A DNA stretch of 64,000 nt from a virus, in the IMG/VR virus record IMGVR_UViG_3300023184_009074, positions 19,445 through 83,444 of that record. One strand, given 5' to 3'. Made by a program: the position numbers and the translations under genes. This document shows positions 1 through 64,000 of the stretch, one piece after another (positions within the stretch are counted from its first letter, which is position 1; each line of letters starts with the position of its first letter). Below the pieces are notes generated by a model that saw only the letters and a program-made list of their open reading frames with translations, ran no database searches and was not told where the DNA came from.

Positions 1-555
1 TATCTTTACTACTTCTGTGAAAAACATAATTTTTGGATGTTTGTTTCTTAATACTTGTGAAGTTTTAATTACAAGTTTTAAGAAATCTTCATTTGAATAT
101 CCTTCTTTGCAGTACTTAATATTTTTTTCATCTAGCTTTATAAGTTGATCGTAAATATATTGTGCTATTTTTTCTTCATCATTTACACCAGTTAAATGTT
201 TAAAATCATTTACCAATGGATAGCATTTAATTAAAATTGGTGCTGGATGACCTTTTAAATCTTTTATATCTCTTCTCAATAATATTTTAAAAGATCCAAG
301 TGGAGACACAGATATTATGAATTTACCATAGCTATCTCCAAATTCTAAAACACTTGATTTTGATCTATATGCTTTTTTATTATTTAATGGACCTAATCTT
401 TGTAAATTGTCTAAAAGAAGATTAGAGTCTAAGTGTTGAATTGGATTTTGATCGTAAACTTCATCTTCTTTTGAAGATTTTTTATTAATTTCTCCAAAAC
501 CATATAAATCTTCTGGAGTTTTATTAAACCATGTTTTAAATTCAAGAAGCATCAT
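1..555 (-). CDS. partial hypothetical protein with CTS-like N-terminus (runs off window start)
   Basis: Not in ORF track. ATG at 555, open to position 1: MMLLEFKTWFNKTPEDLYGFGEINK... Confidence 0.8.
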   Translation of the reverse strand, partial: MMLLEFKTWFNKTPEDLYGFGEINKKSSKEDEVYDQNPIQHLDSNLLLDNLQRLGPLNNKKAYRSKSSVLEFGDSYGKFIISVSPLGSFKILLRRDIKDLKGHPAPILIKCYPLVNDFKHLTGVNDEEKIAQYIYDQLIKLDEKNIKYCKEGYSNEDFLKLVIKTSQVLRNKHPKIMFFTEVVKI

Positions 556-569
556 AATATATATATGAT

Positions 570-890
570 ATGAAACATTTAAATTTTTATAATTGGTTGT
601 TAAATGAAGAACAATCTTCTTATGTTCAAAAAATAAAACAATTGAAAAATGCTTTGGGGCTTTCTGTGCAAGTAGACGACACAGATGGAATAAAAGCTGC
701 TGGAAATATACCATTAAGCGATATAGAGAAAGATAACATTAAGAATTTTAAAACAAATTATATGTATACGGATGTTGGAGTGGAAGATAATAGAAAAGAA
801 AATCAAACTGCTATAGACGAATTATTAAGTTCCCCAAATAAAAATGTTAGTGATCTTGCAAATCTTATGGTTGGTTTAGAAAGCAAATAA
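570..890 (+). CDS. hypothetical protein, CTS-like N-terminus
   Basis: 106 aa, starts MKHLNFYNWLLNEE; followed by a terminator hairpin. Confidence 0.75.
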   Translation: MKHLNFYNWLLNEEQSSYVQKIKQLKNALGLSVQVDDTDGIKAAGNIPLSDIEKDNIKNFKTNYMYTDVGVEDNRKENQTAIDELLSSPNKNVSDLANLMVGLESK

Positions 891-900
891 CCTATAAATA

Positions 901-931
901 AAAAAGCAGCCCTTTTATAGGACTGCTTTTT
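901..931. terminator. bidirectional intrinsic terminator
   Basis: aaaaagcag-cccttttatagga-ctgcttttt inverted repeat with A/T tails between convergent genes. Confidence 0.75.
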
Positions 932-956
932 AAATATAAGTATAATATTTATAGTA

Positions 957-1535
957 TTACATTTGTGGTCTGTCTGCTGGATTTAATTCATTTTCTCCTC
1001 TTTGGTTATCCATATTAGATATATGTTTTTTTAAAACCATCTCAATTTTTTCTAGTGGATCTTGAATAAATCGTTTAAGAGCACCTAAATACTCTTTATC
1101 ATCAAATCTTCCTATTGATCTATTTCTGGCCATAGGATCAGTTGAATAACTTCTTCCTTTATTTAATTCTGAAAGTATGTCATCTACAGCCCGAATCATC
1201 ATTGCTTGGTCTGATGGAGAATTTTTATCAAAGTGTTGTGCGAATGCATTACTAAATCGGTGTAATGGTTCTATAATATTTCTATCAACGGCTTGAAAGT
1301 TTTCGTCATTAGGCAACAGGGCTAAATATCTTAGTTGTGGAATGCTATCTTTTTTGTCATTGCCTAATACATGCTCTATGTGATTTATTAAAGTAACAAT
1401 ACCTGCTTTGAATCTACTAGAATTTTCTTGATCCATTTGAGCAATATGGGTAGCAGTGTTAAGCCTAGCCATTTCAGAGAATTCTTTATAAAATGATTTA
1501 TCACGATTTTTAATAAACTGATTAAAACTTTTCAT
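957..1535 (-). CDS. hypothetical protein, CTS-like N-terminus
   Basis: 192 aa, MKSFNQFIKN; AAAAGGAA SD-like sequence upstream. Confidence 0.75.
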   Translation of the reverse strand: MKSFNQFIKNRDKSFYKEFSEMARLNTATHIAQMDQENSSRFKAGIVTLINHIEHVLGNDKKDSIPQLRYLALLPNDENFQAVDRNIIEPLHRFSNAFAQHFDKNSPSDQAMMIRAVDDILSELNKGRSYSTDPMARNRSIGRFDDKEYLGALKRFIQDPLEKIEMVLKKHISNMDNQRGENELNPADRPQM

Positions 1536-1603: not shown

Positions 1604-3844
1604 TTAAAATTTTAAATCATCTATAGAATCAAGTATTTTAATTTTATGCCCTTGTTTTTCTAATATACTTATTCTTTTTTCTGAATGTTTTTCTAAATAT
1701 TCATTATTTTCAAATAAGAAGTCATAATAATTTAAACCATTTTTATCTTTAGCTATTCTTAAACCTCTACCCATGCGTTGAATAATTAAATGGTCGGCTG
1801 AACCACCACAAGAATTTATTATGTTGTGTACGAAAACATTAATGCCTGTATTAAATATTTGTTGAGTAGCAATTGCCATTACATTACCTTGTGCTTTTTG
1901 AAGTTGATCTATAACTTCTTGTCTTACTTCGTCATTGTCTTCACCTTTAACCCAAAAAGCATTAGGCAATCTATATTTTAAAATATCACCATGCTGTATT
2001 CGATCAACAAGAATCAATGTTCTTCCTGTACATTTATTAGCAAGGTTCTCAACTATATCGTGAAAATAGTGATTTTCTACAATGCCATGTTGTACTGCAT
2101 CTTGATAAATTACATGTTCTAATTTTTCTCCTTTTATTTTAATAAAGAAGCAAGAGCTTTTAGATAGTCTTCCACGATCTTGAAGTTCTTTAGTAGTTAA
2201 TAAACCACTTTCTGTAGCAGTTGTTTTAAGGATTGGCCCAAAAAAACCTTTTACATAATACTTTTGTACTTTATCTGTTTCTCCATATTTAAATGGTGTC
2301 GCAGAAAGTCCTATTCGGATACCACAATTAATCATTTTCTTATAAACAGCTTTAGGAGTTTTGCTCATCATATCGTGAATTTCGTCAACAATAAGAACTT
2401 TAAACTTTGGTAATAACTTAGTTATTTTGCTACAAGATTGAACAGTAGCAACGGTAATTAGATTTGGTTCATTGTAGGTGTGATAAAGTCTTCCTACATT
2501 TTTAAAACCCCATTTTATTAATTCATTGTAGTTTTGAATAGCAAGTGATTTGCGATTTTGAACAACTAAAATAGGAGTATTAGGAGGAAGGCATTTTATA
2601 ATGCTTGTTAATATAAAAGTATTGTGAGTTACAACAAAATTATTTGTCAGGTATAATTGATCTGGATGATCAACACTAATACAAGCACAATCTTTTTCTT
2701 CTGTATATTCGATTTTATCAATATATCTTATTGGTTTAAAACAAGATAAATTTTTATAAGTTTTAATTTTCTCTATATCTGAAAATGGCATTATTTCTTT
2801 TGGTAGTATAATTCCTGTAAGAAAAATCATTCTATTTTTTCTTATTTTTAACTTTGTGTAAGTTATTCCACCTAGAGATTGTACTAGTTGTTTAATTTGG
2901 TCGTTTAATATTTTTGAATAAGAAACATAATAAATTGATCTTTTACCGAATAAAGATCTTCCATCTAATAATCCACATAACAATTTAATTCTATTATCAT
3001 AAGAGTTAAATAAATATTCATCTGGTATTATTGTTTCTTTGGCTAATTTATTTTTTTCGTAATTAATTACATTACTTATTATCAATCCAAAGAAATAAGG
3101 TTCTGTTTTTGTTTGTTTTTCTAAAAAATCAACTCTTTTTGGAGTTGGAACAAATACTTTATTTTTTTCATGCATTAAGTCTTTTGCTTCAACAATTTTT
3201 GTTTCTTTATTTATCTTTACCTTCCAGAGATGATTTTCGCAGCATTCAACAACATCGCCATTATTGAATGTTATTTGAACTATTTTCTTTTTTCCTTGTG
3301 GGAATATTCCTCGTAATTCTGCATATCCACCATTTGGAACACATACTTTATCTTTTAATTTTAAATCTTTTAATTTAACAAAACCATTTTGGGTAGCAAT
3401 CAAGGAATTATAAGGTTGTGCTTTACCAGAACTTGTAGGAGCAAATACAATTCCTCTTTGATGTTTAACAGCTTGGTTGGTAAAATCTACTTGATAATCT
3501 TCTAGTTTTATTTTATCAATTCCTTCTGGGAGCCATTGATTTAAGAAATTTTCATCAATTTCTTTAATTATAAAGTCAAACTTATCTCTAAGGTCATCAA
3601 TTTCATAATCTATATTTTTTAATTTTAATGCCATTAATATCTCTGGTAACAGCCCTGTCAGAAATTTACCAGAATCTTTATTAAAGAACGATGTGTATCC
3701 GTCCCAAATTTTTTGTTTGTAAAGTCTGTTGTGAAAATAGTTCCTTTCTCTGAACTTTAAACAGTTGCAAAGCATATCCTTGGTAGTTACATCAGATGTA
3801 ATTACTTGACTTATATCATTTTTAACCATTATTTTAACTGACAT
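1604..3844 (-). CDS. uvsW: SF2 DNA helicase (UvsW-like), intein-containing
   Basis: WDG motif, YQ motif, Walker A APTSSGK/T split by an intein, DEIH box, SAT motif III, QRMGRGLR motif VI. Confidence 0.85.
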   Translation of the reverse strand: MSVKIMVKNDISQVITSDVTTKDMLCNCLKFRERNYFHNRLYKQKIWDGYTSFFNKDSGKFLTGLLPEILMALKLKNIDYEIDDLRDKFDFIIKEIDENFLNQWLPEGIDKIKLEDYQVDFTNQAVKHQRGIVFAPTSSGKAQPYNSLIATQNGFVKLKDLKLKDKVCVPNGGYAELRGIFPQGKKKIVQITFNNGDVVECCENHLWKVKINKETKIVEAKDLMHEKNKVFVPTPKRVDFLEKQTKTEPYFFGLIISNVINYEKNKLAKETIIPDEYLFNSYDNRIKLLCGLLDGRSLFGKRSIYYVSYSKILNDQIKQLVQSLGGITYTKLKIRKNRMIFLTGIILPKEIMPFSDIEKIKTYKNLSCFKPIRYIDKIEYTEEKDCACISVDHPDQLYLTNNFVVTHNTFILTSIIKCLPPNTPILVVQNRKSLAIQNYNELIKWGFKNVGRLYHTYNEPNLITVATVQSCSKITKLLPKFKVLIVDEIHDMMSKTPKAVYKKMINCGIRIGLSATPFKYGETDKVQKYYVKGFFGPILKTTATESGLLTTKELQDRGRLSKSSCFFIKIKGEKLEHVIYQDAVQHGIVENHYFHDIVENLANKCTGRTLILVDRIQHGDILKYRLPNAFWVKGEDNDEVRQEVIDQLQKAQGNVMAIATQQIFNTGINVFVHNIINSCGGSADHLIIQRMGRGLRIAKDKNGLNYYDFLFENNEYLEKHSEKRISILEKQGHKIKILDSIDDLKF
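2621..3421 (-). mobile_element. intein (267 aa, Ala-start, class 3-type) with degenerate LAGLIDADG domain
   Basis: GK|AQPYNSLIATQNGF...ENHLWKV...DCACISV...YLTNNFVVTHN|T; removing it restores Walker A GKT. Confidence 0.9.
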
Positions 3845-3868
3845 AATTTTTCCTTAAGATAAGGTTTT

Positions 3869-3924: not shown

Positions 3925-4377
3925 ATGAAGAAATATAATGAATGGTTAAAAGAAGAAGCCGAATTAGTGTTAACTACACCAATTCCAGTTGCACCAACTG
4001 CTGTTTCACAGACTGTTGCTCAAAAGGCAGTTTACCAAGCAGATAAAACAAAATTAAAGAATAAAGCTTGGAAAGCAAGTAAAGATGAAATATTAACATT
4101 TTGGAGAAGTGTTGCTGGTAATTCACCAATTCAATTAAAACCTATTCCTTACAATCACAAAGGAACTACAATTCAAGAAGATGGCATAAGAATTACTGGT
4201 ACTAAAGAATTTATCGCAAGTATTCTTTCTAGAATGAAGGAATTGATTAATTTTGAAAATGATAATAATAAATTAATAATTTCTTACAGGCAATCACCTA
4301 AAAGCTTAATACCTGGAAATAAAGAAAGTTATATGTTTTATTTGCAAATAAAAGAAAGAGGTCAAAAATCTAAGTAA
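3925..4377 (+). CDS. hypothetical protein, CTS-like N-terminus
   Basis: 150 aa, MKKYNEWLKEE; preceded by TAATAAATA-tagt-ATG. Confidence 0.8.
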   Translation: MKKYNEWLKEEAELVLTTPIPVAPTAVSQTVAQKAVYQADKTKLKNKAWKASKDEILTFWRSVAGNSPIQLKPIPYNHKGTTIQEDGIRITGTKEFIASILSRMKELINFENDNNKLIISYRQSPKSLIPGNKESYMFYLQIKERGQKSK

Positions 4378-4687: not shown

Positions 4688-5059
4688 ATGGAAATGAATT
4701 TCAAAAAATGGTTAAATGAAGTGGTTGCTCCATTATCTGCTTCTGGGATTAAAACTACAGCAACGACAGGAACAGTTCAAACTAATGCTATAACGCCTAA
4801 TTCATCTGGACAAAAAGGTATTGAAGATAAAAATTTATCAAAAAATATTACAGATTTAGCTGGCATTATGCAAAGAGATCTTCAAAAAACAGGTCAAAGC
4901 ATTAATGACATGACTAAAAAGGCTGTCAACAAAGATTTAAGTGGTATTGTTGGAATGTTTAGAGCATATGATGCAAAAAACAAAAATAAACTTCCTAAAG
5001 ATGATAAAGTTTTGGCTGCTGCAATTACAGGTTTAACTGGACAAGGAGAAACGAAATGA
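4688..5059 (+). CDS. hypothetical protein, CTS-like N-terminus
   Basis: 123 aa, MEMNFKKWLNE. Confidence 0.75.
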   Translation: MEMNFKKWLNEVVAPLSASGIKTTATTGTVQTNAITPNSSGQKGIEDKNLSKNITDLAGIMQRDLQKTGQSINDMTKKAVNKDLSGIVGMFRAYDAKNKNKLPKDDKVLAAAITGLTGQGETK

Positions 5060-5406
5060 TTAATTTTCTAGAATATGTCAATATTCTTGCAGAAGCAGAC
5101 GCACCAGCGTTAGGAGCACCACCTGCTGGCGGTGCAATGCCTCCTCCTCCTGCTGGCGGTGGTGCTGGCGGTGCTGGCGGTGCTGGCGGTGCTGGCGGTG
5201 GTGCTGGTGATATGGGTGCACTTTCTGCTCCTTCTTCTGCACCTTCTCCTGTTCCTGCTGCAAGTGGTGGTGGTGGTGCTCCTCCTATGGATGCTATGGG
5301 TGGTGCAGCACCAGCTGGTGATGTCAGTGCTTTAAAAACTCCAAACATAAACCTAGAAGATGCTTATGATCATTTAGAAGATTTCTTTAATAAAAATAAA
5401 AAATAG
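5056..5406 (+). CDS. Gly/Ala/Pro-rich low-complexity protein, CTS-like N-terminus
   Basis: MINFLEYVNILAE, AAGGAG SD, ATGA overlap with the upstream gene. Confidence 0.75.
   Translation: MINFLEYVNILAEADAPALGAPPAGGAMPPPPAGGGAGGAGGAGGAGGGAGDMGALSAPSSAPSPVPAASGGGGAPPMDAMGGAAPAGDVSALKTPNINLEDAYDHLEDFFNKNKK
5161..5196 (+). repeat. 9-nt tandem repeat ggtgctggc x4 (GAG)
   Basis: Read directly; in frame in 5056..5406. Confidence 0.9.
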
Positions 5407-13610: not shown

Positions 13611-14348
13611 CTATATGCTTGATTCTGTAAGCCATTTTTTAAAAGAAAAATTCTCACTTGTGAATCTTTGCTGCCAATCCTGTGTCCTAGAAGGTTGTGG
13701 AATATACATGGATGCTTTTGTAGTTGGTGCAGTAACAGTCTTTAAAATTTGACCTTCTTCTAATTCTCCAAGAGTATAACTTCTAGATTGATTTGTTTTG
13801 TAAGAAAAAACTTCAATTTCTTGTTCTTTCAATTCGCTTTCATCTAGAATATCCATCACATCCATATCTTGTGCTATGTCATATGCTGCGTTGACAATTT
13901 TTCTAGCTGTTTCTTGATTAAATTCCCATACTTCAAAATTATTTTGTCTAATAATAATATATCCTAAATATTTACATCCATATTTTCTAGAATCTCCATG
14001 TAATGCTTGCATTGCTTCTGTTAATTTTGGATTAGAAACTAATTTATAATTAATATCTTTTATGCCATCGTAAAGACTATAAACATTATCTGGGTCATAC
14101 TCTTCTTGACGAATATCTCTCTCAACTTTCATTTTGTTTACTTCTAATTCTTGAATAAGTTCTTCTGATATTTTTGATTTTTCTGATTTTTCTATTAAGT
14201 CTTCTGCAATGTTAACTAGTTCTTCTGCATATGTTCCGCAAATTGCTTGCATAATATGTGCTTCATGACCCATATCACTGACATCACCATCAGCACCTAT
14301 TAAATAACTGCCATCATAAATATATTCGCCTCTTAAAAAGTCAATCAT
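13611..14348 (-). CDS. hypothetical protein, paralog of the central domain of 14917..16365, with a C-terminal CTS-like motif
   Basis: Shared EELVNIAE, KLTEAMQAL, RKYGCK.LG.IIIR, FEVWE.NQ.TA, SYKTN; ends SENFSFKKWLTESSI. Confidence 0.8.
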   Translation of the reverse strand: MIDFLRGEYIYDGSYLIGADGDVSDMGHEAHIMQAICGTYAEELVNIAEDLIEKSEKSKISEELIQELEVNKMKVERDIRQEEYDPDNVYSLYDGIKDINYKLVSNPKLTEAMQALHGDSRKYGCKYLGYIIIRQNNFEVWEFNQETARKIVNAAYDIAQDMDVMDILDESELKEQEIEVFSYKTNQSRSYTLGELEEGQILKTVTAPTTKASMYIPQPSRTQDWQQRFTSENFSFKKWLTESSI

Positions 14349-14350
14349 TA

Positions 14351-14920
14351 TTAATCCTTATTTAAAGTACTTATTACAATAGGTTGTATATCTAAAAGTT
14401 CAGTATCGTTTTTAAAAATTCTTGGAAATCTTTTTGCTATTACAGGATTGAAGTTAAATGGTTTTACTTTTACATGTCTATCTTCGTTTATTCCAAGTGC
14501 ATACAATTTAGCCATTGTTTTCCCAGCAGTAGGATCTAGATCATCTACAAGAATTGATTTTTTGCTTTTAGGTAATTTGTTTTCTTCTGGGTCAATAAAT
14601 TCATAATCTTCTATTCCAAAAATATTATTTTCATCTATTGGGATGCCAAGAGCTTTTATTACTTTTTTCTGAAATACACTTCCTCCAGCAGTAATAATAC
14701 AAACTTTGGCAATTGCTTTTAAATTATTTACAAAATCAATTGCATGTGGCCTTAGAAAACTAGCATAAGAATTGGTAATCAACACACCACTAAGAGCTTT
14801 AATTTCTTCTGGATTTTTAAAAGGTGGCACTTTATTAGTACTTACTAAAGTTTCATCTAAGTCTAAGAATATGATTGGATTTTCTTCTTTATTTTCAATC
14901 CATGTTTTAAAATTTATCAT
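14351..14920 (-). CDS. NIF/FCP1-type HAD phosphatase with CTS-like N-terminus
   Basis: FLDLDETLV (DxDxT), LRPH..DF, ILVDD; starts MINFKTWIENKE. Confidence 0.8.
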   Translation of the reverse strand: MINFKTWIENKEENPIIFLDLDETLVSTNKVPPFKNPEEIKALSGVLITNSYASFLRPHAIDFVNNLKAIAKVCIITAGGSVFQKKVIKALGIPIDENNIFGIEDYEFIDPEENKLPKSKKSILVDDLDPTAGKTMAKLYALGINEDRHVKVKPFNFNPVIAKRFPRIFKNDTELLDIQPIVISTLNKD

Positions 14921-16365
14921 TTATGTATTTTCTTTGTGTCTGTAGAAAATGTTCCTTTGTTTTTAATTGATTTTAATTGTTTTGGATCAAAAACTATGGC
15001 ATTAAATGTTCCATCTTTATCTTTTAAAATAACGCCATCGTATCCATCTCTAAGCAATTCATCTATACCTTTTTTATCATATTCATCCCAGCCAGCTGGA
15101 TTTTGAATAGATGCATAGAGTTCAAAAACGGCACCGCTAACACCAGCACCAGTTTCATTTTTATCAGCAGCATTTTTGTCTGATGTTACCCAAATTATCC
15201 CGCCCATAGCAGATTTCTTAGGGTCAAATCCAAATTTATTTATTTTTTCTGCTGCTTCTTTGCTTGTTTGATGATAAACCACAATTGGATTGCCTTCTGA
15301 ATCTATTACTTTTGAATTTTTAAACCAATTTTTAAAATCAGGATTGTCAATTATGGAGTTTTCTAACCATATTTTAAAAGAAAAACTTTCGCTTGTGTAT
15401 CGCAATTGGTGTCTTTGTGTAGTTGAAAGTCCTTCTGGAGTAGAAGCCTGTGGAATGAAATGATTTGATTTACCTTGACTTATTGTAGGTGTTACATTTA
15501 ATTTTTTATCTCTTAATTGCTCAATAGTATATTCACTGCCTTTATTGGTTTTATATGAAGTAATTCCTATAGTTTGCTCATCTTCTCTGCTTCTGTCTTC
15601 TCTGTTTTCTTCCATAATTTTTTCTGCTGCATCTACAATCTTATTTGCAGTATCTTGATTGAGTTCCCACACTTCAAAGAAAGGCCCTCTAATAATAATA
15701 AATCCTAAAGATTTACATCCATATTTTCTGACATCTCCATGTGATAATGCTTGCATGGCTTCTGTTAGTTTTTGATCAGAAACTAATTGCGGATTAATAT
15801 CTTTAATAGCATTATAAAGGGTGCCAATATTAGTAATTTCTTTTTCTCCAATATTATCATCTTCAATATAATCTGGAAGATTTTTAATTTTATATTTATA
15901 TCTCTTTAATTCCTCTAATTTTTCTTCTAATTCTTCATCTATTTCTTCTGGTTTTTTTGATTCAATTTGTTTAATTAATTTTTCTGCAATATTTACTAAT
16001 TCTTCTCTATGATTTAAAAAAATTGCTGCTTGTATCGTTTCTTCATGAGTTTTTACATCTGCTTCTGTTAATTTTCCGTGATCATAAATCCATTCACCTT
16101 TTAAAAGATCTACTTCTTCCTTGTCTTCAAATGGTGGCTCAATTATTTCAAGTTGTTCTTTCCACCAATTTAATTCTGCTTCAACATTATTTACTTTAGT
16201 TTGTTCTAAAAGAGATTTGATCCATATCATAGATTGTTCAATTTTAAATTTTTCTATTTCTTCCCATCCCAACCCATCTAAATTATTTATTATGTTGTGA
16301 AATGCTATAATAAAATCTTTTGGTATTTCTTTATTTATAAATTTGATAACTGCGTCTTTGTCCAT
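14917..16365 (-). CDS. multidomain protein: unknown domain plus C-terminal ADP-ribosyltransferase-like (ART-PolyVal-like) domain
   Basis: FKNWFKNSKVIDSEGNPIVVYHQT...FDP...IQNP...GYDGVIL...VFDPKQLKS..NKGTF. Confidence 0.7.
   Translation of the reverse strand: MDKDAVIKFINKEIPKDFIIAFHNIINNLDGLGWEEIEKFKIEQSMIWIKSLLEQTKVNNVEAELNWWKEQLEIIEPPFEDKEEVDLLKGEWIYDHGKLTEADVKTHEETIQAAIFLNHREELVNIAEKLIKQIESKKPEEIDEELEEKLEELKRYKYKIKNLPDYIEDDNIGEKEITNIGTLYNAIKDINPQLVSDQKLTEAMQALSHGDVRKYGCKSLGFIIIRGPFFEVWELNQDTANKIVDAAEKIMEENREDRSREDEQTIGITSYKTNKGSEYTIEQLRDKKLNVTPTISQGKSNHFIPQASTPEGLSTTQRHQLRYTSESFSFKIWLENSIIDNPDFKNWFKNSKVIDSEGNPIVVYHQTSKEAAEKINKFGFDPKKSAMGGIIWVTSDKNAADKNETGAGVSGAVFELYASIQNPAGWDEYDKKGIDELLRDGYDGVILKDKDGTFNAIVFDPKQLKSIKNKGTFSTDTKKIHK
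15359..15378. repeat. 20-nt exact direct repeat, copy 1 (encodes FKIWLEN on minus strand)
   Basis: ttttctaaccatattttaaa, identical to 16400..16419. Confidence 0.9.
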
Positions 16366-16374
16366 ATTATTTTC

Positions 16375-16425
16375 TTATATTTTTCTGGAATAGTTTCTAT
16401 TTTCTAACCATATTTTAAAGTTCAT
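16375..16425 (-). other. 16-codon mini-ORF MNFKIWLENRNYSRKI*, in frame with the downstream 482-aa ORF
   Basis: ATG at 16425 is exactly 60 nt upstream of ATG 16365; single TAA at 16377-16375; AATATATA-tttt-ATG upstream. Confidence 0.7.
16400..16419. repeat. 20-nt exact direct repeat, copy 2
   Basis: ttttctaaccatattttaaa, identical to 15359..15378. Confidence 0.9.
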
Positions 16426-16470: not shown

Positions 16471-16650
16471 ATGGATAAAATAAAAAAAGAAGAAAAAGTT
16501 TGTTATAATTGCGAATATCTTCTTGGACAAAGTGATATTTCTTTTGGTCTTAGATGTAAACACCCAGAAAACCAAAAAGAAGAAACATTGCCTATTGTTC
16601 CAAGTCCAACGCATAATTGTAAGCATTTTGAAAATAAGCTTAGAAGGTAA
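16471..16650 (+). CDS. unannotated 59-aa Cys4 protein, paralog of the next gene
   Basis: MDKIKKEEKVCYNCEYLLGQSDISFGLRCKHPENQKEETLPIVPSPTHNCKHFENKLRR; aligns with 16654..16845. Confidence 0.8.
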   Translation: MDKIKKEEKVCYNCEYLLGQSDISFGLRCKHPENQKEETLPIVPSPTHNCKHFENKLRR

Positions 16651-16653
16651 TAG

Positions 16654-16845
16654 ATGTTTAATTTAGAAATAAAGCCAGAAGACAAAGTTTGTTATAATTG
16701 CAAATTTTTATTTTGGAGTGTTGGAATAGGCATGGGAATAAGATGTAACAATGAAAATAATAGAAAAGGTCAAGAGTTACCGCCTATAACACATAGTAAA
16801 AGCACTTGTGATTTATTTCTGCAGAAGCGAAGGCAATTAAAATGA
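16654..16845 (+). CDS. small Cys4 (putative Zn-binding) protein
   Basis: KVCYNC...GIRC...C; GAAGG SD-like sequence. Confidence 0.75.
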   Translation: MFNLEIKPEDKVCYNCKFLFWSVGIGMGIRCNNENNRKGQELPPITHSKSTCDLFLQKRRQLK

Positions 16846-23214: not shown

Positions 23215-23598
23215 ATGGATAATTTTAAAGAATTTATATTAAATGAAAGCAAACAATTTTTTGCCACTCAATGTGGCGACATTTTAAATGCTATTCAAAA
23301 TCTTGAAGAAGAAGCAGACTATATTGGGACAAGAAATCTTGTAAGATATAGTCAGAATATTGCAAATAACATTAGAAATTTAATTCATTCTCATTGGAGT
23401 GATGATTTAAGTGATAATTTAAAACAATTGCAAACTATAGGAGTTGCAATATTAAAATCAATAGAAGAATCATCTGAATTGCTAGAAACAATTAAATCTG
23501 CAAGGGCATCTTTAGAAGAACTGGTTAAAAAACTTGGCGTACCAATTAACAATGTTGGAATACCAGAAAAAGAATCCAAACCTCAAGAAGCAGAATAG
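23215..23598 (+). CDS. hypothetical protein, CTS-like N-terminus
   Basis: MDNFKEFILNES; AATATATA-gatt-ATG. Confidence 0.75.
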   Translation: MDNFKEFILNESKQFFATQCGDILNAIQNLEEEADYIGTRNLVRYSQNIANNIRNLIHSHWSDDLSDNLKQLQTIGVAILKSIEESSELLETIKSARASLEELVKKLGVPINNVGIPEKESKPQEAE

Positions 23599-33053: not shown

Positions 33054-33210
33054 CTTTATTGTTCTCTACTATTATTTGATTGAAAATATTAGCATGATTC
33101 TTTAAATTGTTCTTTTCGTAATAATCTCTTATTTCTGATAAATCTTTTAAGCTAAATGGATTATTAAAAAGATTTATTAGATTATTGTAAAAATTTTTAA
33201 TCATTGTCAA
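33022..33210 (-). CDS. small hypothetical protein
   Basis: 62 aa, overlaps both neighbours. Confidence 0.5.
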   Translation of the reverse strand: MTMIKNFYNNLINLFNNPFSLKDLSEIRDYYEKNNLKNHANIFNQIIVENNKVENNRSNIIP

Positions 33211-33718
33211 AATTATTATTTCTATAATAGTTTTCTTTTATTTTCATAGAATAAGTACTCGACATTGATTTTTGATACATATCATTTATTCTACGCTTCA
33301 ATTCTTGGTAATTTCTAGCTGCTCTATACAATTGTTTAAAATGATTCAGAATACATGTAGTCATATAATTAAAAGCTTTACCCTTTGCAGGATCGAATTT
33401 TTCTGCTCTTTCAAAACAAATTACAACTCCTTCTTGAATAGAATCATCTTGATCTATATGGCTGAACTTTGCGTATTTAACGATGTTCTCTGACAAAGTG
33501 TAGAAAGCTTTAGCTAATTCAGTTTGTGCTTCTAAATGGCTTTTCTGAGCTTCTAATGGCTGAGTAAGCGGTATGAATAAAACTTTATCTTTGCTGTTTT
33601 TTTTATGTATTTCTACATCTTCATGAAGTATTTCATATTTTAATTTATTTTTTTTCGTTTCTTGAAAATTAATAATTAATTTTTCAAATGTCCTGTTATT
33701 TAAATATTCATTGCTCAT
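33197..33718 (-). CDS. late-transcription sigma factor (T4 gp55-like)
   Basis: YLNN..F, D.IQEG...C, KFDPAKGKAFNYMT..I.NHF. Confidence 0.75.
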   Translation of the reverse strand: MSNEYLNNRTFEKLIINFQETKKNKLKYEILHEDVEIHKKNSKDKVLFIPLTQPLEAQKSHLEAQTELAKAFYTLSENIVKYAKFSHIDQDDSIQEGVVICFERAEKFDPAKGKAFNYMTTCILNHFKQLYRAARNYQELKRRINDMYQKSMSSTYSMKIKENYYRNNNFDND

Positions 33719-34526: not shown

Positions 34527-34548
34527 ATGATTATATAGTAGTTTAAAT

Positions 34549-34582
34549 AAAAAAAGCTTGCATTATTAAATGCAAGCTTTTT
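34549..34582 (-). terminator. intrinsic terminator after the major tube gene
   Basis: aaaaagcttgcatt-atta-aatgcaagcttttt long inverted repeat. Confidence 0.85.
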
Positions 34583-34602
34583 ATTAAATAATTGAGTATT
34601 AC

Positions 34603-38859: not shown

Positions 38860-39081
38860 ATGATTAATTTTAAAGAATGGTTAAAATTACAAGAATATGC
38901 TTTTCATAATTATTTTGGACCACTTACTGGAACAGGGGTAAACGATGAACCTTTTTCAAAAGCAGGTGTGCGTTCTAAATATATTGGACCAGCAGATACA
39001 TTCAGTTCTAATGGAATAGAGAACACTCCTGAATGTTTATATTTAAAAAAACATTGTCCCAAGAAACATAAAAGGAAATAA
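38860..39081 (+). CDS. small protein, CTS-like N-terminus
   Basis: MINFKEWLKLQE; TAATAAATA-aatt-ATG. Confidence 0.75.
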   Translation: MINFKEWLKLQEYAFHNYFGPLTGTGVNDEPFSKAGVRSKYIGPADTFSSNGIENTPECLYLKKHCPKKHKRK

Positions 39082-47988: not shown

Positions 47989-48888
47989 TTACTTTTTCTT
48001 CATTTTATTCATTTTTTTCATTTTCTTCATTTTATTCATTTTCATCATCGCAGCTTTGGTTGCACCTGTATTAGTTGGTACAGTTTCAGCTTTATCTTCA
48101 GATTCTACTTCAGCAGCAGCAGCATTAAAAGCAGACTTAATAGCATTCATTAATTTAGTCTTTGCACTATTATCAGACATTTTATCTACAAAAGAATCAT
48201 GTAATGCCTTGATTATCTCTTTGGCTAAACCACTTAATTTCTGAGTACTAAAATTAGATCCAGTTAATTTACTTTTAAATTTTTCAAGTGGATTATCAAC
48301 ACCTGCACCATATGCTTCGTTTACCATACCATCAAAATTAGCTTGTGTTACACAAGCATTATCAAGCATTGAAGAAACACTTTTTTGCCAATCTTTAAAA
48401 GAAGGAATATGCTTTGGCATGGTGTTTTCAGAAGCCATGTAAGATCCACATTTGGACCAACAATTTTTTTCCTTCATGTCTTCGCCTTCTTCATCTTCAT
48501 CTTCTTCCATGTCTTCGTCTTCGTCTTCATCATCTTCGTCTTCATCATCTTCGTCTTCTTCATCTTCGTCTTCGTCTTCCATTTCATCTTCATCTTCCAT
48601 TTCATCTTCATCTTCCATTTCATCTTCATCTTCCATTTCATCTTCATCTTCCATTTCATCTTCATCTTCATCTTCATTATCTTCAATTTCTTCTATGTCT
48701 TCTTCTTCCATATCTTCATATTCTTTGTTTTTGTTTTTGTTTTTGTTTTTTACTTCATCTTCTTCTGAAGGCATGAAATCACTCATGCGTTGATCCATCA
48801 TGATTCCTAGGTTGTGAGTGCCAGAAAGACCGAGGTTTACTGATCCTAGGTTTTCGTTTAATTTTTTCCAATTGTTGTAATTCAACAT
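47989..48888 (-). CDS. low-complexity protein with acidic tract and basic Met/Lys tail, CTS-like N-terminus
   Basis: MLNYNNWKKLNE; long D/E block; ends MMKMNKMKKMKKMNKMKKK; AGGAG SD; own terminator. Confidence 0.8.
   Translation of the reverse strand: MLNYNNWKKLNENLGSVNLGLSGTHNLGIMMDQRMSDFMPSEEDEVKNKNKNKNKEYEDMEEEDIEEIEDNEDEDEDEMEDEDEMEDEDEMEDEDEMEDEDEMEDEDEDEEDEDDEDEDDEDEDEDMEEDEDEEGEDMKEKNCWSKCGSYMASENTMPKHIPSFKDWQKSVSSMLDNACVTQANFDGMVNEAYGAGVDNPLEKFKSKLTGSNFSTQKLSGLAKEIIKALHDSFVDKMSDNSAKTKLMNAIKSAFNAAAAEVESEDKAETVPTNTGATKAAMMKMNKMKKMKKMNKMKKK
48576..48665. repeat. 18-nt tandem repeat x5 (DEDEME)
   Basis: cttccatttcatcttcat x5, exact. Confidence 0.95.
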
Positions 48889-50516: not shown

Positions 50517-50753
50517 ATGTTATCATTTGAAGAATGGGTTTATGAAACTTATCCATTGTTGACTGAAAAAACTAAGAGGGCTGGAATTGCTCATTGGGCA
50601 TATCCTCAAGGATATGCAAGAGCACATTATCCTGCTAGCTATTTTACACCTGTTGCAGCTGATGCAATTCAGAAATTAGGGCCAACTGCTTCTGATAGCT
50701 CAATTGATGTTAAAAAGTTTAATTACAGTCAATTTGGTGAAACCGAAGAATAA
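50517..50753 (+). CDS. small protein, CTS-like N-terminus
   Basis: MLSFEEWVYE; AAGGAAGG SD; followed by a terminator. Confidence 0.75.
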   Translation: MLSFEEWVYETYPLLTEKTKRAGIAHWAYPQGYARAHYPASYFTPVAADAIQKLGPTASDSSIDVKKFNYSQFGETEE

Positions 50754-51895: not shown

Positions 51896-52294
51896 TTTGT
51901 ATTTATTTATTTCGTGAATTGTAAAGATATAGCTTTTAAATAGATTAATCTTTCTTAGCAATCTTTCGTGAAGATTATATTGATTAATTTCATCAAAATT
52001 AATCCATTTATAGTCTAAATGCTCTTCGCTTAAAGTACAATCAAAAGATTTTTCTATCATAACAACATAAGTGACGAAATAATTTTTTTTATGGAAATCT
52101 GGAAATTTGCCAATCTCTATCCCAGTTGGCAAAGTTCCTATTTCTTCTCTTGTCTCTCTGCATGCAGTTTCCCAACTGGTTTCATTTTTTTCTTGTTTTC
52201 CACCAGGAATACTCCATATTTTATTTTTTGAATTTTTTAGTAATATCAAAAAATTCCATCCATCAGTATAAAAAATACCAGATGATTTTTTCAA
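51851..52294 (-). CDS. NUDIX hydrolase
   Basis: PGGKQEKNETSWETACRETREEIG Nudix box; LSEEH.DYKW. Confidence 0.9.
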   Translation of the reverse strand: MKKSSGIFYTDGWNFLILLKNSKNKIWSIPGGKQEKNETSWETACRETREEIGTLPTGIEIGKFPDFHKKNYFVTYVVMIEKSFDCTLSEEHLDYKWINFDEINQYNLHERLLRKINLFKSYIFTIHEINKYKLINNNLNAANRVFR

Positions 52295-52875
52295 TTTTTT
52301 GGACCTCTTTTTAAATTAATACCTTTTAGTTTTTCTTTGTGTTTATCAGGTTTGTGTTTAATATCGTCCATTACATTTTTTAATTTATAAGTCATGCTTG
52401 ATGCATTTAAATCACCATCAATTTTTTCTGTATTTACTACAGATACTGTTTTCTTACTTTTATTGTAAAACCCTTTACTTAAAACAAACATATCAAGCTT
52501 ATGGTTGTAACTTATTAATGAGCACCATCCTCCATCATCCCAATTTCTCGCAGTAACAATTATTCTATAAGGCTCTTCGTCAAATATTAATTTAACATGA
52601 TATCCTTCTTTTTTAAGTGCTGCACTTACATAACCTAAAGTTATTTTTGCAAACCCACTTAAAACATCTTCCTTTTTAGTTCTATAGTTTATTTCTACAG
52701 AATATCTTGTGTGCTCTACAGATTCTAATAATATATTATTTTTTGTATTAAAAGTGTTAGATGTATAATTTTTACATATTTCTATAAAATCAAGCAATTC
52801 TTCTTGTTTTATGTCTTTGACATTTTCAAAAAGATTTTGTAATTTTTCTTTTTTGTATTCTTTGAAATTTTTCAT
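52291..52875 (-). CDS. hypothetical protein, CTS-like N-terminus
   Basis: MKNFKEYKKE; TAATAAATA-aattact-ATG. Confidence 0.75.
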   Translation of the reverse strand: MKNFKEYKKEKLQNLFENVKDIKQEELLDFIEICKNYTSNTFNTKNNILLESVEHTRYSVEINYRTKKEDVLSGFAKITLGYVSAALKKEGYHVKLIFDEEPYRIIVTARNWDDGGWCSLISYNHKLDMFVLSKGFYNKSKKTVSVVNTEKIDGDLNASSMTYKLKNVMDDIKHKPDKHKEKLKGINLKRGPKN

Positions 52876-59400: not shown

Positions 59401-59672
59401 CAAGTTTGTCTAATGATGAAAAAAATATTATTGTAAAAGAAATGGAAAAAGGAAGAGATGATCAATATATTACATTATCTAAAGAATACAAAACAATAAC
59501 AGATCAGCTAGAAGTTAAAAAAAGAGAAATAATCATTAGTTTGACTAATTATTTTAGGCATGTAGATGAAACTCAATCTTTAAAATTAAGTTTATTAGAT
59601 GCCTTAGAAATATATGGAATACATATTGAAGACCACATCCCAGCAGATATTTTAAGGAAGTACGGTTTATAA
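56406..59672 (+). CDS. large hypothetical protein, candidate head-packaged protein
   Basis: 1088 aa, charged, Cys cluster CKTGKSACGICTDPLDTRC, Ala/Pro linker; weak CTS-like start ending ...VLNE. Confidence 0.75.
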   Translation: MLKKFYIEDYLSNKIKQEDFVLNEAVQGDITKHTLLQLFSIDNIKYLNQFLPKDHKSAEKKRMQILYDAMQDRDSFLKKDFEENFKEQKEKLKVLFERKKEVKIYFTKDFEETIINHCSRKQAWEKTLEEGQKEWWDSPATDGGKKYQASDFVVDIKDRKATRRYKVNLHLKEMVQRIEGTSGSDMGSDLSFPREDPFSWSHKKNEFLNKKRFNGMLMPDDNTIEENYDKWLAASASGLLSSKSLKHGDEIDIAGEEKEEIPGLESKNKISFEKHSSLKNKNMLDVERVLIRKEIRAIFENHNLSKSIIDSYGKPKKASKEPSRNTGELSSVYPKEPDRYKDNLVIFIEKLLNLGNDIHVGSSGSKRLLTFLNKISYDPKNPEQFFKDVLTFPSDEEQLLTSLERASTEEGEKSKSLSFYEDLKNAVDKHGAIEIFDKESYKKSFINLITMRQFIKWIKDGNYKVKNPITGMDELAEIKGNEIIIPDLHVPSFKKTIVYYNPYEAVYDPRTKGKVKKEKEIKESVQMPVLLPGSVLVEKGRYEEDDTSSSFGDIPKTKTGEEIWNPHEGKYEQRYYDLKKQYEDKKAAGLLNINDLIGIQGTEDKIIGGLSPNRMIESFKFLCPDPEGKDNTFWNRINSIIAFNGSLALCHFKSASSTSEIPTVEFKELSPSVSGYKSIVETPSEFIVIKRIAEVIANKLHMSKYRDSHDITPERLSAMQHFPELYHVIFAKIFSNLGDKSMLEPELLDKFIGEKVANYIDKDIASRSGRSSRIGTVASEIGKEEEKSSEISLPSGLEKVVSKEIASRDIQSYIFALHRNYLTLCKTGKSACGICTDPLDTRCGIVMDEHLIREKLEQSIKIADQVDKNRNIDLGNAPVASKPPEPAPVPAAAAAPAAAAAAPAAAAPAPAAPASKKPTQKSLFDDPSQPEEKIKIKDPDHNKMEFVVKSKMKIIEYIEPVINIKFANNELDNQQEEEEKRKEIFNNFMSKKREALASTSLSNDEKNIIVKEMEKGRDDQYITLSKEYKTITDQLEVKKREIIISLTNYFRHVDETQSLKLSLLDALEIYGIHIEDHIPADILRKYGL
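59062..59148 (+). repeat. gca/cca low-complexity repeat (PAAAAA linker)
   Basis: ccagcagcagcagcagca units. Confidence 0.85.
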
Positions 59673-60598: not shown

Positions 60599-60997
60599 AT
60601 GGCTTTAATAGTACCAGATGTTGGAAAAGTTGAGCTTTTAAAGTATATGCTTAAAGTTTCAGCTTCACAAAATCAAATTTTACATTTATATTCAAATGAT
60701 CCTACTATTTCTGATTTAACAGTATTAGCAGATCTTAATGAAGTGTCTGGATCTGGCTACAATCCAATTAATATTAATGGAACTAGCTGGACTGTAAATC
60801 AAACAAATACATCTGCTAGTTATTCAGATCAAACATTTTCTTTTACTGGTGCGGTTGTTGCATACGGATATTTTTTAACAAATACAGATGGTGATTTACT
60901 CTGGTGCGAGAGATTTACTAACGCACCATTTTCCATACCTGTTTCAGGAGGTCAAATAGCAATTGCTTTAAATATTAGTTTAAGTGATTGTCTATAA
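60599..60997 (+). CDS. probable tail-associated virion protein
   Basis: MALIVPDVG, LHLYSND, E.SGSGY, YGYFL, LLWCERF; likely start 60599. Confidence 0.65.
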   Translation: MALIVPDVGKVELLKYMLKVSASQNQILHLYSNDPTISDLTVLADLNEVSGSGYNPININGTSWTVNQTNTSASYSDQTFSFTGAVVAYGYFLTNTDGDLLWCERFTNAPFSIPVSGGQIAIALNISLSDCL

Positions 60998-61005
60998 GGA
61001 GAAAT

Positions 61006-63438
61006 ATGTTTATATTAGAATTTAAACAATGGATAGAAGAAGAGTTATTAATTGAAGCACTTTTATCTAAAGATCAATCAAAGCTTTTTTCGATTATATT
61101 AAATCACATAAAACTTAATCCATTAGTAAACATTGTTGGAGTTGGTAAGAAAAATGTAAATCAATTAGTAAGTTCTATAACAGGTTCACTATTAGACAAA
61201 TTTTCTAAAACCAGTATTAATGATGATGTTTTTTTGAAAGCTTTTTTAGCTGTAGTATTAAGAAGAGCATTTCAATCAAAGGATTTCAGTTCTATAATAG
61301 ATGATAATTTTTTCACTTTATCTAAACAAGATAAAGAATTACAGATAGATGCAGCTATAGGATACATTTCAATGTTCTTAGAAGATTTAGATGAAAAATC
61401 ATATATTTTTGGCGAAATATTACATAATAATAATGGAGATTTATCAAAATCAATAAATGATTTTTTAACAAATCCTAGAGGAATACATAGCCATTTGGGA
61501 TTGGAAAAAAAGCCATTGTTTAAAAAAGCATTAGAAAAACCATCGCAAGAAAAACTTATCATGAGAAGTTTAGATCAAGATTCTAATACTGATTCTAAGC
61601 AGTATATACCTACAGAAGATGAATTGCTTTCAAAAAGAGATGCTTCTGATAAGCCAAAAAAAGAATTTGATGATATTTCTAGAATAGAACAACAAGAATT
61701 TCAAAAGAAACTACTTAGTGTTACTCCTGCTAAGGCTAAAGAAAATTTAAATATTAATCTAAAAAGATCTTTGGATGAAAATAAAGATGCTATTATTAAT
61801 CCTGATAATTTAGACTTTTTTGCCAAAAATCCAAAAAGTAAAAAGCCAGAAATTAACGATACTAATAATTATTTAAAAATAAAAGCCTTATATGATATTA
61901 GTACAAAATTTGAAAAAGGCATTTCTGAATTAGAAGGCCATTCTGGGATACCTTCTTATGAAGGAAGATCATATTCTACATTACCAACTAGAAAAGATGT
62001 TCTTGATTCTGATTCTTATTTTTCAAAATTAAAAGATGATCAATGGATAAACTTAATTAGCAAATACATATTATCGCATTATAATGCAGGTAAAGATCCA
62101 AAAATTGCAATAAGCTTTTTTACTAATTTATATGGTGCTCCAAGTGACATGTGGAAAAAAGTTATAGATACAGCAGTTGAAAAATCTGTGAATGTAAAAA
62201 AAGATTTATTAGAAAAAGATTTTCCTCTTACTCAAGATGATTTTGAATTTGAAGATGAAAAAGCTAAAAAAGATAAAGAAAGATTTAAAAGAACTTGGAT
62301 GAATATGTCTGGGCGTTTAGCTGTAAGTGCAAAATCTGACTTACATGAGTTCTTACCAGATTCTATAAATCCTTATGATGATAATGGAAATCCAAAAGAA
62401 GAAGGAAAGTTTGATAAAGATGGATACGACAGAGTAAGTAAAATATTAGATGATTTTTATTATAATAAATTTTATGGAAATACTTCTGTTAAATCTGGCA
62501 GTAAAATTGATGACAAAGAAAAAGAAGTAGCAAACAAAAGTCAAAATTTCCAAACACTAGTAAAATTATATAGAATTTTATTGGGGTTATCTGCAATTGA
62601 AGTAGCACAAGTAGATGCAAAAACAATACCAATATGTAAACAACTGCAAATATGGTTGGATTTTTCATTTAGAGATCCAGGTTCTAATGTTTCTGTTGAA
62701 GAATTAAATAAAATTAAAGACATTAAGAAGATTAAAGAATTATTAGATAGCAGTGAGAATATAATTAAAAATATATTCAAAAAACCTTTGAATGCTATTT
62801 GTAATAATGATAAATTTGATGACTTTGAAATTGAAGATGATGATTGGAAATCAAGCCATGAAGAATATTTAGCTGCATTAAACATTAAAGATTTACCAGC
62901 AGGGTATTCTATAGGAAGTCGATTTGGATTTAAAGATTTTTTGAAATTAAAAAATTCAAAAAATAAAGAAGATATTGAAAAATATAAATATTTGATTAGC
63001 AAGGGAAAAGAATCTTTAAAAAATGAGCCATCCTTGGCTAAGAAGGCAGAAGAAAAAGAATATCTAGATATTGCTGAAAAAATTGTTGCTCTTAGGCAAG
63101 GAGTTGGCGATCCATATGCTATCGCAGAAAAGCTTAAAACAGGTTTATCTGTAGGATCTCCTTTATGGCACGATTTACAAATTGTTAAGAGTAAATTCAC
63201 GCCTCCTGATGTGTATACGCCTAGATCTAAAGAAGAAGAAGAGTTTGGCATTACTAGATCTTCTGAAATTCCACAACTACCAGCATGGAAACCAAAAACC
63301 CCTGAAGTTTCTTCGCCTGATCCAAAAGAAAAAGAACAGATGATAGCAGCAGCTAAGCAAAGAGCACAAGCAGCAGCGGACCAAAGAAGAGCTTATTACG
63401 CAAGTAATTTGAATAAAGACACAGGGAGGGTAAAATGA
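61006..63438 (+). CDS. large hypothetical protein, CTS-like N-terminus
   Basis: AAGGAG SD then MFILEFKQWIEEELLIE; about 810 aa. Confidence 0.78.
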   Translation: MFILEFKQWIEEELLIEALLSKDQSKLFSIILNHIKLNPLVNIVGVGKKNVNQLVSSITGSLLDKFSKTSINDDVFLKAFLAVVLRRAFQSKDFSSIIDDNFFTLSKQDKELQIDAAIGYISMFLEDLDEKSYIFGEILHNNNGDLSKSINDFLTNPRGIHSHLGLEKKPLFKKALEKPSQEKLIMRSLDQDSNTDSKQYIPTEDELLSKRDASDKPKKEFDDISRIEQQEFQKKLLSVTPAKAKENLNINLKRSLDENKDAIINPDNLDFFAKNPKSKKPEINDTNNYLKIKALYDISTKFEKGISELEGHSGIPSYEGRSYSTLPTRKDVLDSDSYFSKLKDDQWINLISKYILSHYNAGKDPKIAISFFTNLYGAPSDMWKKVIDTAVEKSVNVKKDLLEKDFPLTQDDFEFEDEKAKKDKERFKRTWMNMSGRLAVSAKSDLHEFLPDSINPYDDNGNPKEEGKFDKDGYDRVSKILDDFYYNKFYGNTSVKSGSKIDDKEKEVANKSQNFQTLVKLYRILLGLSAIEVAQVDAKTIPICKQLQIWLDFSFRDPGSNVSVEELNKIKDIKKIKELLDSSENIIKNIFKKPLNAICNNDKFDDFEIEDDDWKSSHEEYLAALNIKDLPAGYSIGSRFGFKDFLKLKNSKNKEDIEKYKYLISKGKESLKNEPSLAKKAEEKEYLDIAEKIVALRQGVGDPYAIAEKLKTGLSVGSPLWHDLQIVKSKFTPPDVYTPRSKEEEEFGITRSSEIPQLPAWKPKTPEVSSPDPKEKEQMIAAAKQRAQAAADQRRAYYASNLNKDTGRVK

Positions 63439-63968
63439 TATTAAATCAAAATGGATTACCTTATAGTGTCAATGGAGAATATAAGCTTTTTAATGATAAG
63501 CTACCAGAAAGAAATTTGTTTAACGAATGGGATGCAGAATCTATAAGAATTGGCGGATCTCCAATTCAATATTATGAAGTATTTATTGATACAAATAACA
63601 TTGATCCTCTTTACTTAGAATCAAGAGGAAAGTTATTTAGTCAGACTCCAATAGATCTTTATTGTTTTTACGAGCCTATACCAAGTCAAAATTTTCAAAC
63701 TTCTTTTGGACTAGATAGTCCTGATGAAATGATATTTGAATTTAATTATTCAGATGTTTTAACAAGACTTGGATATGCTCCAAAAATTGGTTCTAGATTT
63801 CACACGCCTTTTCTTAACGAAAATTGGGTTATTGTTGAGAGAAAATTAGGTGAGTTTAAAATGTATCAGTCTACTAGATTACAATGTATATGTAGTAGAT
63901 TCCAAGAAAGTCTTACTGATGGTTCTAATGGAACAAAACAAGAAAATGTTGATTTTAAAATTACATAA
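63435..63968 (+). CDS. neck/head-closure protein (T4 gp14-like)
   Basis: ESIRIGG.PI.YY, IDPLYLE, FGLDSPDE..F, PKIG; GGGAGG SD. Confidence 0.7.
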   Translation: MILNQNGLPYSVNGEYKLFNDKLPERNLFNEWDAESIRIGGSPIQYYEVFIDTNNIDPLYLESRGKLFSQTPIDLYCFYEPIPSQNFQTSFGLDSPDEMIFEFNYSDVLTRLGYAPKIGSRFHTPFLNENWVIVERKLGEFKMYQSTRLQCICSRFQESLTDGSNGTKQENVDFKIT

Positions 63969-63977
63969 GGAGAAAAT

Positions 63978-64000
63978 ATGAAAAGTTTTTATGATTTCTA
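63978..64000 (+). CDS. start of next CDS (MKSFYDF...), CTS-like
   Basis: AAGGAG SD, ATG at 63978, runs off window. Confidence 0.6.

Follow-up and report, generated by a model that had tools for sequence, protein, structure and literature searches.

Tagged genes of the contig and their enrichment

The subject of this study is a short N-terminal peptide, hereafter referred to as the tag, which recurs at the start of otherwise unrelated proteins encoded by a stretch of viral DNA of 64,000 nucleotides (the window). The window corresponds to bases 19445-83444 of an 83,444-bp linear contig (IMG/VR record IMGVR_UViG_3300023184_009074), which has a G+C content of 27-28%, is 17% complete according to CheckV, and whose DNA is present in lake and freshwater metagenomes from 15 studies. 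Roughly one in eight genes of this contig begins with the tag, which comprises about 10 residues and resembles the capsid targeting sequence (CTS) of phage T4. Sixteen such N-termini had been listed in a preliminary description of the window, and all 16 starts do encode the peptides reported there. The corresponding genes are as follows (aa, amino acids; nt, nucleotides; ORF, open reading frame; SD, Shine-Dalgarno sequence; G003 and handles beginning with L denote related sequences).

1..555, minus strand: tagged gene starting MMLLEFKTWF..., which runs on left of the window; the G003 orthologue is tagged MNKSFKSWIFNE
570..890, plus strand: tagged 106-aa ORFan, MKHLNFYNWLLNE
957..1535, minus strand: tagged 192-aa ORFan, MKSFNQFIKNRD; weaker tag with no adjoining [LIV]-x-E
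3925..4377, plus strand: tagged 150-aa basic protein, MKKYNEWLKE, nearest to the T4 register; TAAATA box 4 nt 5' of the ATG
4688..5059, plus strand: tagged 123-aa protein, MEMNFKKWLNE
5056..5406, plus strand: tagged 116-aa acidic, Ala/Pro/Gly-rich protein, MINFLEYVNILAE
14351..14920, minus strand: tagged NIF/HAD-type phosphatase, MINFKTWIE; Pfam PF03031 (1.8e-9), DxDxT from residue 20
16375..16425, minus strand: orphan tag ORF, MNFKIWLEN.., 16 codons and then TAA, in frame with the ADP-ribosyltransferase (ART) ORF described below
23215..23598, plus strand: tagged 127-aa protein, MDNFKEFILNE; the G003 orthologue is 37% identical and tagged MRFRDYLLNE
38860..39081, plus strand: tagged 73-aa basic protein, MINFKEWLKLQE, adjoining gp15; TAAATA box 4 nt 5' of the ATG; tag kept in L001-L007
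39370..39744, plus strand: tagged 124-aa protein, MKKFNSWLNE
47989..48888, minus strand: tagged 299-aa poly-acidic protein, MLNYNNWKKLNE
50517..50753, plus strand: tagged 78-aa protein, MLSFEEWVYE
52291..52875, minus strand: tagged 194-aa basic protein, MKNFKEYKKE, a weaker tag
61006..63438, plus strand: tagged 810-aa protein, MFILEFKQWIEE; strong SD; the gene in front of it has a weak PHROG match to "head protein"; the L014 orthologue is tagged
63978..64000, plus strand: start of a tagged gene, MKSFYDF..; full-length orthologues are acidic, 187-214 aa long, start MKSF[FY].FY and are syntenic in L014-L022

Certain entries of the preliminary description required correction: the start at 16425(-) opens the 16-codon ORF listed above, the 482-aa ORF with which it is in frame spanning 14917-16365(-); those at 555(-) and 61006(+) are internal ATGs of longer mechanically called ORFs, but have a better promoter or SD context; and the gene at 63978(+) is truncated by the contig end, its orthologue L014:5029-5592 encoding a 187-aa acidic protein. 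A 17th tagged gene is located 702 nt left of the window.

For the assessment of enrichment, ORFs were called greedily and the first ATG was taken as the start, so that start choice was blind to the motif. The pattern, which includes the terminal Glu (^M.{0,4}[FY]..[WFY][LIVK].{0,4}E), was present in 12 of the 109 ORFs of the contig, as opposed to the 0.78 matches expected from shuffled N-termini (standard deviation 0.85, maximum 5, 2000 shuffles). None of the 328 internal Met positions of the contig matched, where internal positions generally predict 0.5, and all 13 pattern sites in the contig proteome fall within the first nine residues. Trp, which accounts for approximately 1% of residues overall, is yet found at residue 7 in six proteins. 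BLASTP detected no similarity among the bodies of the tagged proteins of the contig, in agreement with the earlier claim that these diverge after the tag, and the tag was, as also claimed, missing from ribonucleotide reductase, helicase, gp46/47, both sigma factors, sheath, tube, and gp15. What the tagged proteins share is, in other words, a short peptide in the CTS range (10 to 19 aa) at the N-terminus of otherwise unrelated polypeptides.

Relatives of the contig were found by searching with conserved window proteins; the large contigs G002 and G003 were read whole, and the same counting script was applied to all genomes. Seven matches were found in G002 (116 kb, 28% G+C), where 1.1 were expected, and 24 among the 317 ORFs of G003 (225 kb, 37% G+C, 44% complete according to CheckV), for which 1.25 were expected with a maximum of 6. 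The unannotated genome LR756511.1 (595,163 bp, 42% G+C), the capsid protein of which is 75% identical to that of G002, gave 27 matches against 4.0 expected (standard deviation 2.1, maximum 11); its accession lies within the block cited in PMC9723777 for the huge phages of Al-Shayeb 2020. Tags in these relatives include MKTFEDFIIE, MKTFEQYFNE, MKTFNQWLE, and MKSFSEWVIE, which are nearer still to MKTYQEFIAE and MKTFKEF of T4, and a CCA-adding enzyme is tagged in G003 while its G002 orthologue is untagged. Judged from these counts, the tag expansion appears to cover roughly 2.5-15% of genes in huge lake phages.

Among the controls, 100 kb of T4 yielded 2 matches in 153 ORFs (0.64 expected), which are exactly the internal proteins IPII and IPIII. 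No enrichment was apparent in 100 kb of the T4-like Pelagibacter phage HTVC008M (34% G+C; 3 of 120, all weak and none CTS-like, 0.58 expected) or in the first 250 kb of LR756508, a 484-kb huge phage whose capsid protein is 45% identical (2 of 326, 1.1 expected). The enrichment is, therefore, no general trait of AT-rich, T4-like, or huge phages. A chance or compositional effect of AT-rich N-termini might be suspected, given that AT-rich genomes abound in codons for Lys, Asn, Phe, and Ile; however, the pattern is reproduced neither by the shuffles, nor by the internal Met positions, nor by the three control genomes, and residue 7 is Trp, a rare residue, in six proteins. We regard this explanation as refuted by the controls, its residual probability being negligible.

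Register, conservation, and head machinery

When 61 tags were aligned on their first aromatic residue, 34 of them had this residue at position 4 and a further 11 had it at position 3. The second aromatic residue, whose distance of three positions is fixed by the search pattern, is Trp in 30 tags, Tyr in 17, and Phe in 14. The two are separated by Lys or Asn and then any residue, and are followed by Leu, Ile, or Val (47/61 at the +4 position) and then usually by any residue and Glu. The Glu of the first hydrophobic-x-Glu lies three to six residues past the second aromatic in 40 of the 61 tags, while 11 have no such Glu. The resulting consensus is M-[KLI]-[SNT]-F-[KN]-x-[WYF]-[LIV]-x-E, in which the conserved positions are 4 and 7 (aromatic), 8 (aliphatic), and 10 (Glu), and the commonest ending is W-L-N-E. 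The tag of T4 IPIII, as taken from the T4 record, is MKTYQEFIAE, and amber-suppressor substitutions in IPIII have assigned targeting to residues 4 and 7 (Tyr4 and Phe7) and processing to residues 8 and 10 (PMC9026906). As aligned here, the four conserved positions of the tag coincide with these four mapped positions, the match extending both to targeting positions 4/7 and to the aliphatic-x-Glu motif of the T4 protease gp21 at residues 8-10.

Orthologue sets with invariant tag residues are only 22-66% identical overall. Across 16 orthologues of the phosphatase (mean column identity of 62%, one of them being only 38% identical), F4, K5, and E9 are invariant and W7 is nearly so. In the 78- to 82-aa family of the gene at 50517, whose members share 22-41% identity, M1, L2, F4, W7, and E10 represent five of the eight invariant columns, and in the family of the poly-acidic 299-aa protein (nine homologues) M1, L2, W7, K8, N11, and E12 are invariant against a mean column identity of 46%. 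Substitutions within the tag stay within class (F/Y, W/F/Y, and L/I/V), and the motif persists from 27% to 42% G+C. These alignments indicate that purifying selection acts on the tag while the orthologues diverge, and that the tag is better kept than the rest of the protein. In an AlphaFold2 model of the phosphatase (predicted local distance difference test score of 86.7), the only segment scoring below 50 comprises residues 1-11, which form a short helix apart from the HAD fold, while the folded domain begins at residue 16. On this model, the detached residues 1-11 are predicted to behave as a docking peptide and not as a structural element.

A CTS would require the machinery that reads it, and head genes were located in the relatives. 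G002 encodes an S77 prohead protease (PF03420, 7e-27) and a gp23-type capsid protein (PF07068, 2e-87) within a gene order as in T4, namely, a portal-like protein, the protease, a 300-aa scaffold-like protein, and the capsid protein. The same head genes are present in G003 and LR756511, and the S77 protease is found in G002, G003, G004, and LR756511, one protease gene of the clade spanning L017:18368-19021 on the minus strand. The N-terminus of the protease is a short leader ending in QINE or NLNE. In the capsid protein, FLNE occupies residues 7-10, and the Pfam domain, which starts at residue 56, is closely preceded by LINE or LMNE. As [LI]-N-E occurs in the protease leader and the capsid protein as well as in the tags, the tags have a motif in common with the sites at which the protease probably cuts itself and the capsid protein is probably matured. 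The predicted complex between the S77 protease of G002 and a tagged 82-aa protein scored 0.30 relative to a mark of 0.32 and counts neither way.

Promoter-like box, ART locus, and putative cargo

Besides the tagged genes, the contig encodes T4-type tail proteins, which include gp15 and a T4 baseplate protein, and two sigma factors, one of them ECF-like. The relevant features of the window are as follows.

33197..33718, minus strand: sigma factor with region 2 only (T4 gp55-like; PF04542 only)
34026-35244, minus strand: two tail-tube paralogues
35271-37607, minus strand: sheath, 33-37% identical to those of cultured T4-like phages

The sheath identities indicate that the phage is only distantly related to T4. 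Tail-tube paralogues number two in the window and three in the 225-kb relative (L021:14481-16306). A 746-aa helicase (1604-3844, minus strand) gave a weak match to the intein-splicing family PF14890 (9e-4) at residues 179-408, upstream of the helicase motifs, and may carry an intein. At 16471-16845 on the plus strand lie two small tandem paralogues of 59 and 63 aa with a common KVCYNC Cys motif. A 1,088-aa protein (56406-59672, plus strand) starts MLKKFYIEDY and its L022 orthologue starts with the tag-like MLKKFYEWNFFINE; it may represent a degenerate tag on a very large protein.

Many tagged genes have a TAAATA, TATATA, or TAGATA box, the end of which lies 4-8 nt 5' of the ATG. In LR756511 (L046-L057), where such a box is less likely by composition than in AT-rich contigs, TA[N]ATA was found in 16 of 27 tagged versus 74 of 1057 untagged genes (odds ratio 19, p 9e-12), and for three contigs pooled the figures were 20/57 and 63/507, respectively (p 4e-5). 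The form common to LR756511 and the window is (C)TA[ACT]ATA. Similar boxes are located 5' of the capsid, tube, gp15, and portal genes, but further upstream and with an SD leader. The TAAATA boxes are likely to be read by the gp55-like sigma factor, and its presence, together with the position of the box, would point to late transcription that is leaderless or nearly so; late synthesis of early-acting enzymes would, in turn, make sense only if these were carried in the virion. The tagged genes at 555(-) and 570(+) are divergent, with only 14 nt (556-569, ATATATATAT-like, with an ATATAT spacer) between their start codons, and each promoter would need to sit inside or overlap the tag-coding region of the other gene.

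The tag might alternatively be a short linear motif through which these proteins bind some other common partner (e.g., a chaperone of the phage, a system for import into a compartment, or a protease with a regulatory role), in which case its likeness to the T4 CTS would be due to convergence. A motif acting as a detached peptide, and one that is also found internally and at C-termini, would suit such a role; however, the four-position register is that of T4, L-N-E also occurs on the protease and capsid protein, helicase, nuclease, sigma, and polymerase-side genes are untagged, and tagged genes carry a late-type box. We consider convergence of this kind improbable.

The 16-codon orphan tag forms part of a locus which further comprises the following genes.

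13611..14348, minus strand: X', a paralogue of the N-terminal domain of the ART gene, with a C-terminal tag copy (..FSFKKWLTESSI) followed by a stop
14917..16365, minus strand: 482-aa ORF consisting of domain X, an internal tag copy (SFKIWLEN, at approximately 15361-15384), and ART-PolyVal (PF18760, 2e-14)

The order of elements in the contig is thus tag, TAA, 340-aa domain X, second tag copy, and ART. Ordinary genes all over the contig end in TAA, and reassignment of the stop codon behind the orphan tag was rejected for this reason. An exact repeat of 20 nt (15359-15378 = 16400-16419) is common to the two tag copies. The G003 ART orthologue is a 117-aa protein in which ART directly follows the tag. 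One contig from an independent freshwater (lake) metagenome (run X6) joins 15358 to 16400, skipping exactly the 1041 nt between the repeats and thereby yielding a plain tag-ART gene. Consequently, the locus seems to exist in nature both in a form that includes domain X and the stop and in one that lacks them, the evidence for the natural tag-ART variant being modest (one contig).

Such a repeat, like the promoter-like box 4-8 nt 5' of the ATG in many tagged genes, raises the question of whether it is the DNA or RNA of the shared 5' end, and not the peptide, that is functional, this end being retained as a promoter/start cassette enabling translation without a leader or as a recombination joint; the 20-nt tag repeat flanks precisely the segment that is missing from the natural variant. 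Yet in approximately two-thirds of tagged genes the start is preceded by an ordinary SD leader and not by such a box, substitutions preserve residue class and not codon, the motif spans 27%-42% G+C, and tag residues are invariant in protein alignments. An explanation confined to the nucleic acid is, in our view, very unlikely.

For most tagged proteins, neither Pfam nor PHROGs gave a match, the exceptions being the NIF/HAD phosphatase, the ART-PolyVal ADP-ribosyltransferase, and, in G003, a HAD_SAK_1 RNA-repair phosphatase. The latter is one of three adjoining tagged genes of G003 (L033:8763-11655), the others specifying a CCA-adding-type nucleotidyltransferase and a 185-aa protein of no assigned family; judged by these assignments, the trio may represent a packaged RNA-repair set. 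In the poly-acidic protein (47989-48888, minus strand), conservation of which extends over the clade, a stretch of about 100 residues is nearly all Asp or Glu, and the tail is rich in Lys and Met; this protein could act as a DNA mimic or belong to the core.

It is conceivable that the tag does target the prohead, but that most tagged proteins are assembly parts, i.e., core or scaffold accessories, which are cut up and expelled at maturation and never reach the host as cargo. Several tagged proteins are indeed acidic, low in complexity, or poly-Asp/Glu, in which they resemble gp67 and gp68 of the T4 core, tagged genes of small size adjoin the portal gene in G002 and G003, and the MKSF family is located inside the neck/tail module. 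The enzymes (HAD phosphatase, ART, and HAD_SAK_1) have, on the other hand, no obvious assembly role, and tagged genes are scattered genome-wide with fast turnover, like those of T4 internal proteins. We deem such an assembly role for the majority of tagged proteins unlikely.

We propose, instead, that the tag is probably a T4-type CTS which has been expanded across a clade of very large freshwater phages. From the sequence patterns described above, we infer docking, cleavage after Glu, packaging, and injection of the tagged proteins. Through aromatic residues 4 and 7, the nascent protein would dock onto the prohead's scaffolding core, and the aliphatic-x-Glu at residues 8-10 would then be cleaved by the T4-type S77 prohead protease, whereupon the mature protein would remain in the head and exit with the DNA at the next infection. 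This label would have been placed on dozens of unrelated, scattered genes, i.e., those for the HAD phosphatase, the ADP-ribosyltransferase, poly-acidic proteins, and many ORFans, many of them putatively driven by a T4-late-like TAAATA box directly 5' of the ATG. This suggests that a large set of proteins is carried into the host along with the DNA. The capsid-targeting reading advanced in the preliminary description is supported, accordingly, by the register, the head genes of the relatives, the L-N-E motif, selection, the parallel between the ART and T4 Alt, and the late-type box; its further statement that many more cargo proteins are packaged than in T4 holds for motif counts only.

Several observations weigh against a capsid targeting role. 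Neither a capsid protein nor a prohead protease was found in the contig to which the window belongs, which is incomplete, and the protease is known from the relatives only. About four of the 16 window tags (WIE, WLE, FIKN, and YKKE) are without the canonical [LIV]-x-E right after the second aromatic residue, and one of the 16 is the orphan tag cut off by a stop codon. Tag copies are also situated internally, in the ART ORF, and at the C-terminus, the latter also on two small basic proteins of G002 and G003; a strictly N-terminal signal needs neither. For the window contig alone, the association between box and tag was not significant (p 0.48), the box being AT-rich and the association weak in AT-rich contigs. 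Lastly, the match in the DnaG-type primase of G003 was rejected as a likely false positive, its G002 orthologue having F..W with no aliphatic-Glu.

A broader scenario, which we put forward tentatively and consider less likely than not, is that in lake phages of approximately 0.5-0.6 Mb the tag may serve as a general shipping label for perhaps 30-100 injected effectors, such as ART, phosphatases, RNA-repair enzymes, and poly-acidic possible DNA mimics, made late from leaderless TAAATA transcripts, and that the tag-coding DNA may double as a recombination joint for the swap, duplication, and loss of effector modules in natural populations.

Comparison with known systems

If a T4-type CTS is indeed at work, the T4 capsid targeting code would be ancient and conserved far outside the T-even phages, so that residues 4, 7, 8, and 10 would be readable directly in metagenomes. 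A simple pattern would then list the injected-protein repertoire of uncultured huge phages, dozens of ORFans would become candidate first-minute effectors against host defences, and a natural library of working tags and passengers would be available for capsid-based protein delivery. It would also provide one possible answer to the use of very large phage genomes and capsids. No description of a CTS-like tag in huge phages was found in the literature searched, a limited library.

Other phages are known or thought to load proteins into their heads. In the giant phages phiKZ, 201phi2-1, and SPN3US, the head comprises dozens of proteins, a homologous prohead protease cuts after Glu, and the propeptides are thought to target the prohead (PMC5694885 and PMC7411985). 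Like the phage described here, phiKZ-type giants are very large, but their propeptides are protein specific and mostly >100 residues long, with no single shared short motif, whereas the shared part here comprises about 10 residues and not the ~100+ of such propeptides. The N-terminal signal of P1 DarB is sufficient to load this anti-defence protein into the capsid (PMC9024508); however, it measures 30 residues, lacks a shared consensus, pertains to one protein, and acts in the stepwise Dar assembly as opposed to a T4-type core. For polyvalent proteins with ART-PolyVal domains, delivery along with the DNA has been proposed (Iyer et al. 2017, cited in PMC7824862). These proteins contain the same ART family (PF18760), but as single giant multidomain chains, in contrast to the separate small genes found here, each with its own tag.

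The closest counterpart is the CTS of T4 (Mullaney and Black 1996; reviewed in PMC9026906 and PMC3012670), which likewise takes up about 10 residues at the N-terminus of unrelated passengers (IPI, IPII, and IPIII, besides the propeptide of Alt), and the machinery of which (S77 protease, scaffold, and gp23-type capsid protein) is encoded here by the relatives. T4 Alt, an ADP-ribosyltransferase packaged via its propeptide, is the precedent for the ADP-ribosyltransferase among the putative passengers of the present phage. A stop and a 340-aa domain separate its N-terminal tag from ART in this contig, and its domain family differs from that of Alt; the T4 record, for its part, contains a duplicated 5' part of alt which is interrupted by a stop codon. 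Further differences from T4 concern numbers (three such proteins in T4, two of which fit the pattern in 100 kb, versus 12-17 in 83 kb here and 24-27 in the larger relatives), location (few polymorphic loci for the internal-protein genes of T4, scattered genes here), and the tag itself, in which Trp is favoured at position 7 and of which extra internal and C-terminal copies exist. The mechanism itself was already known from T4, and the novelty would lie in its being conserved so far from T4 and expanded in huge lake phages.

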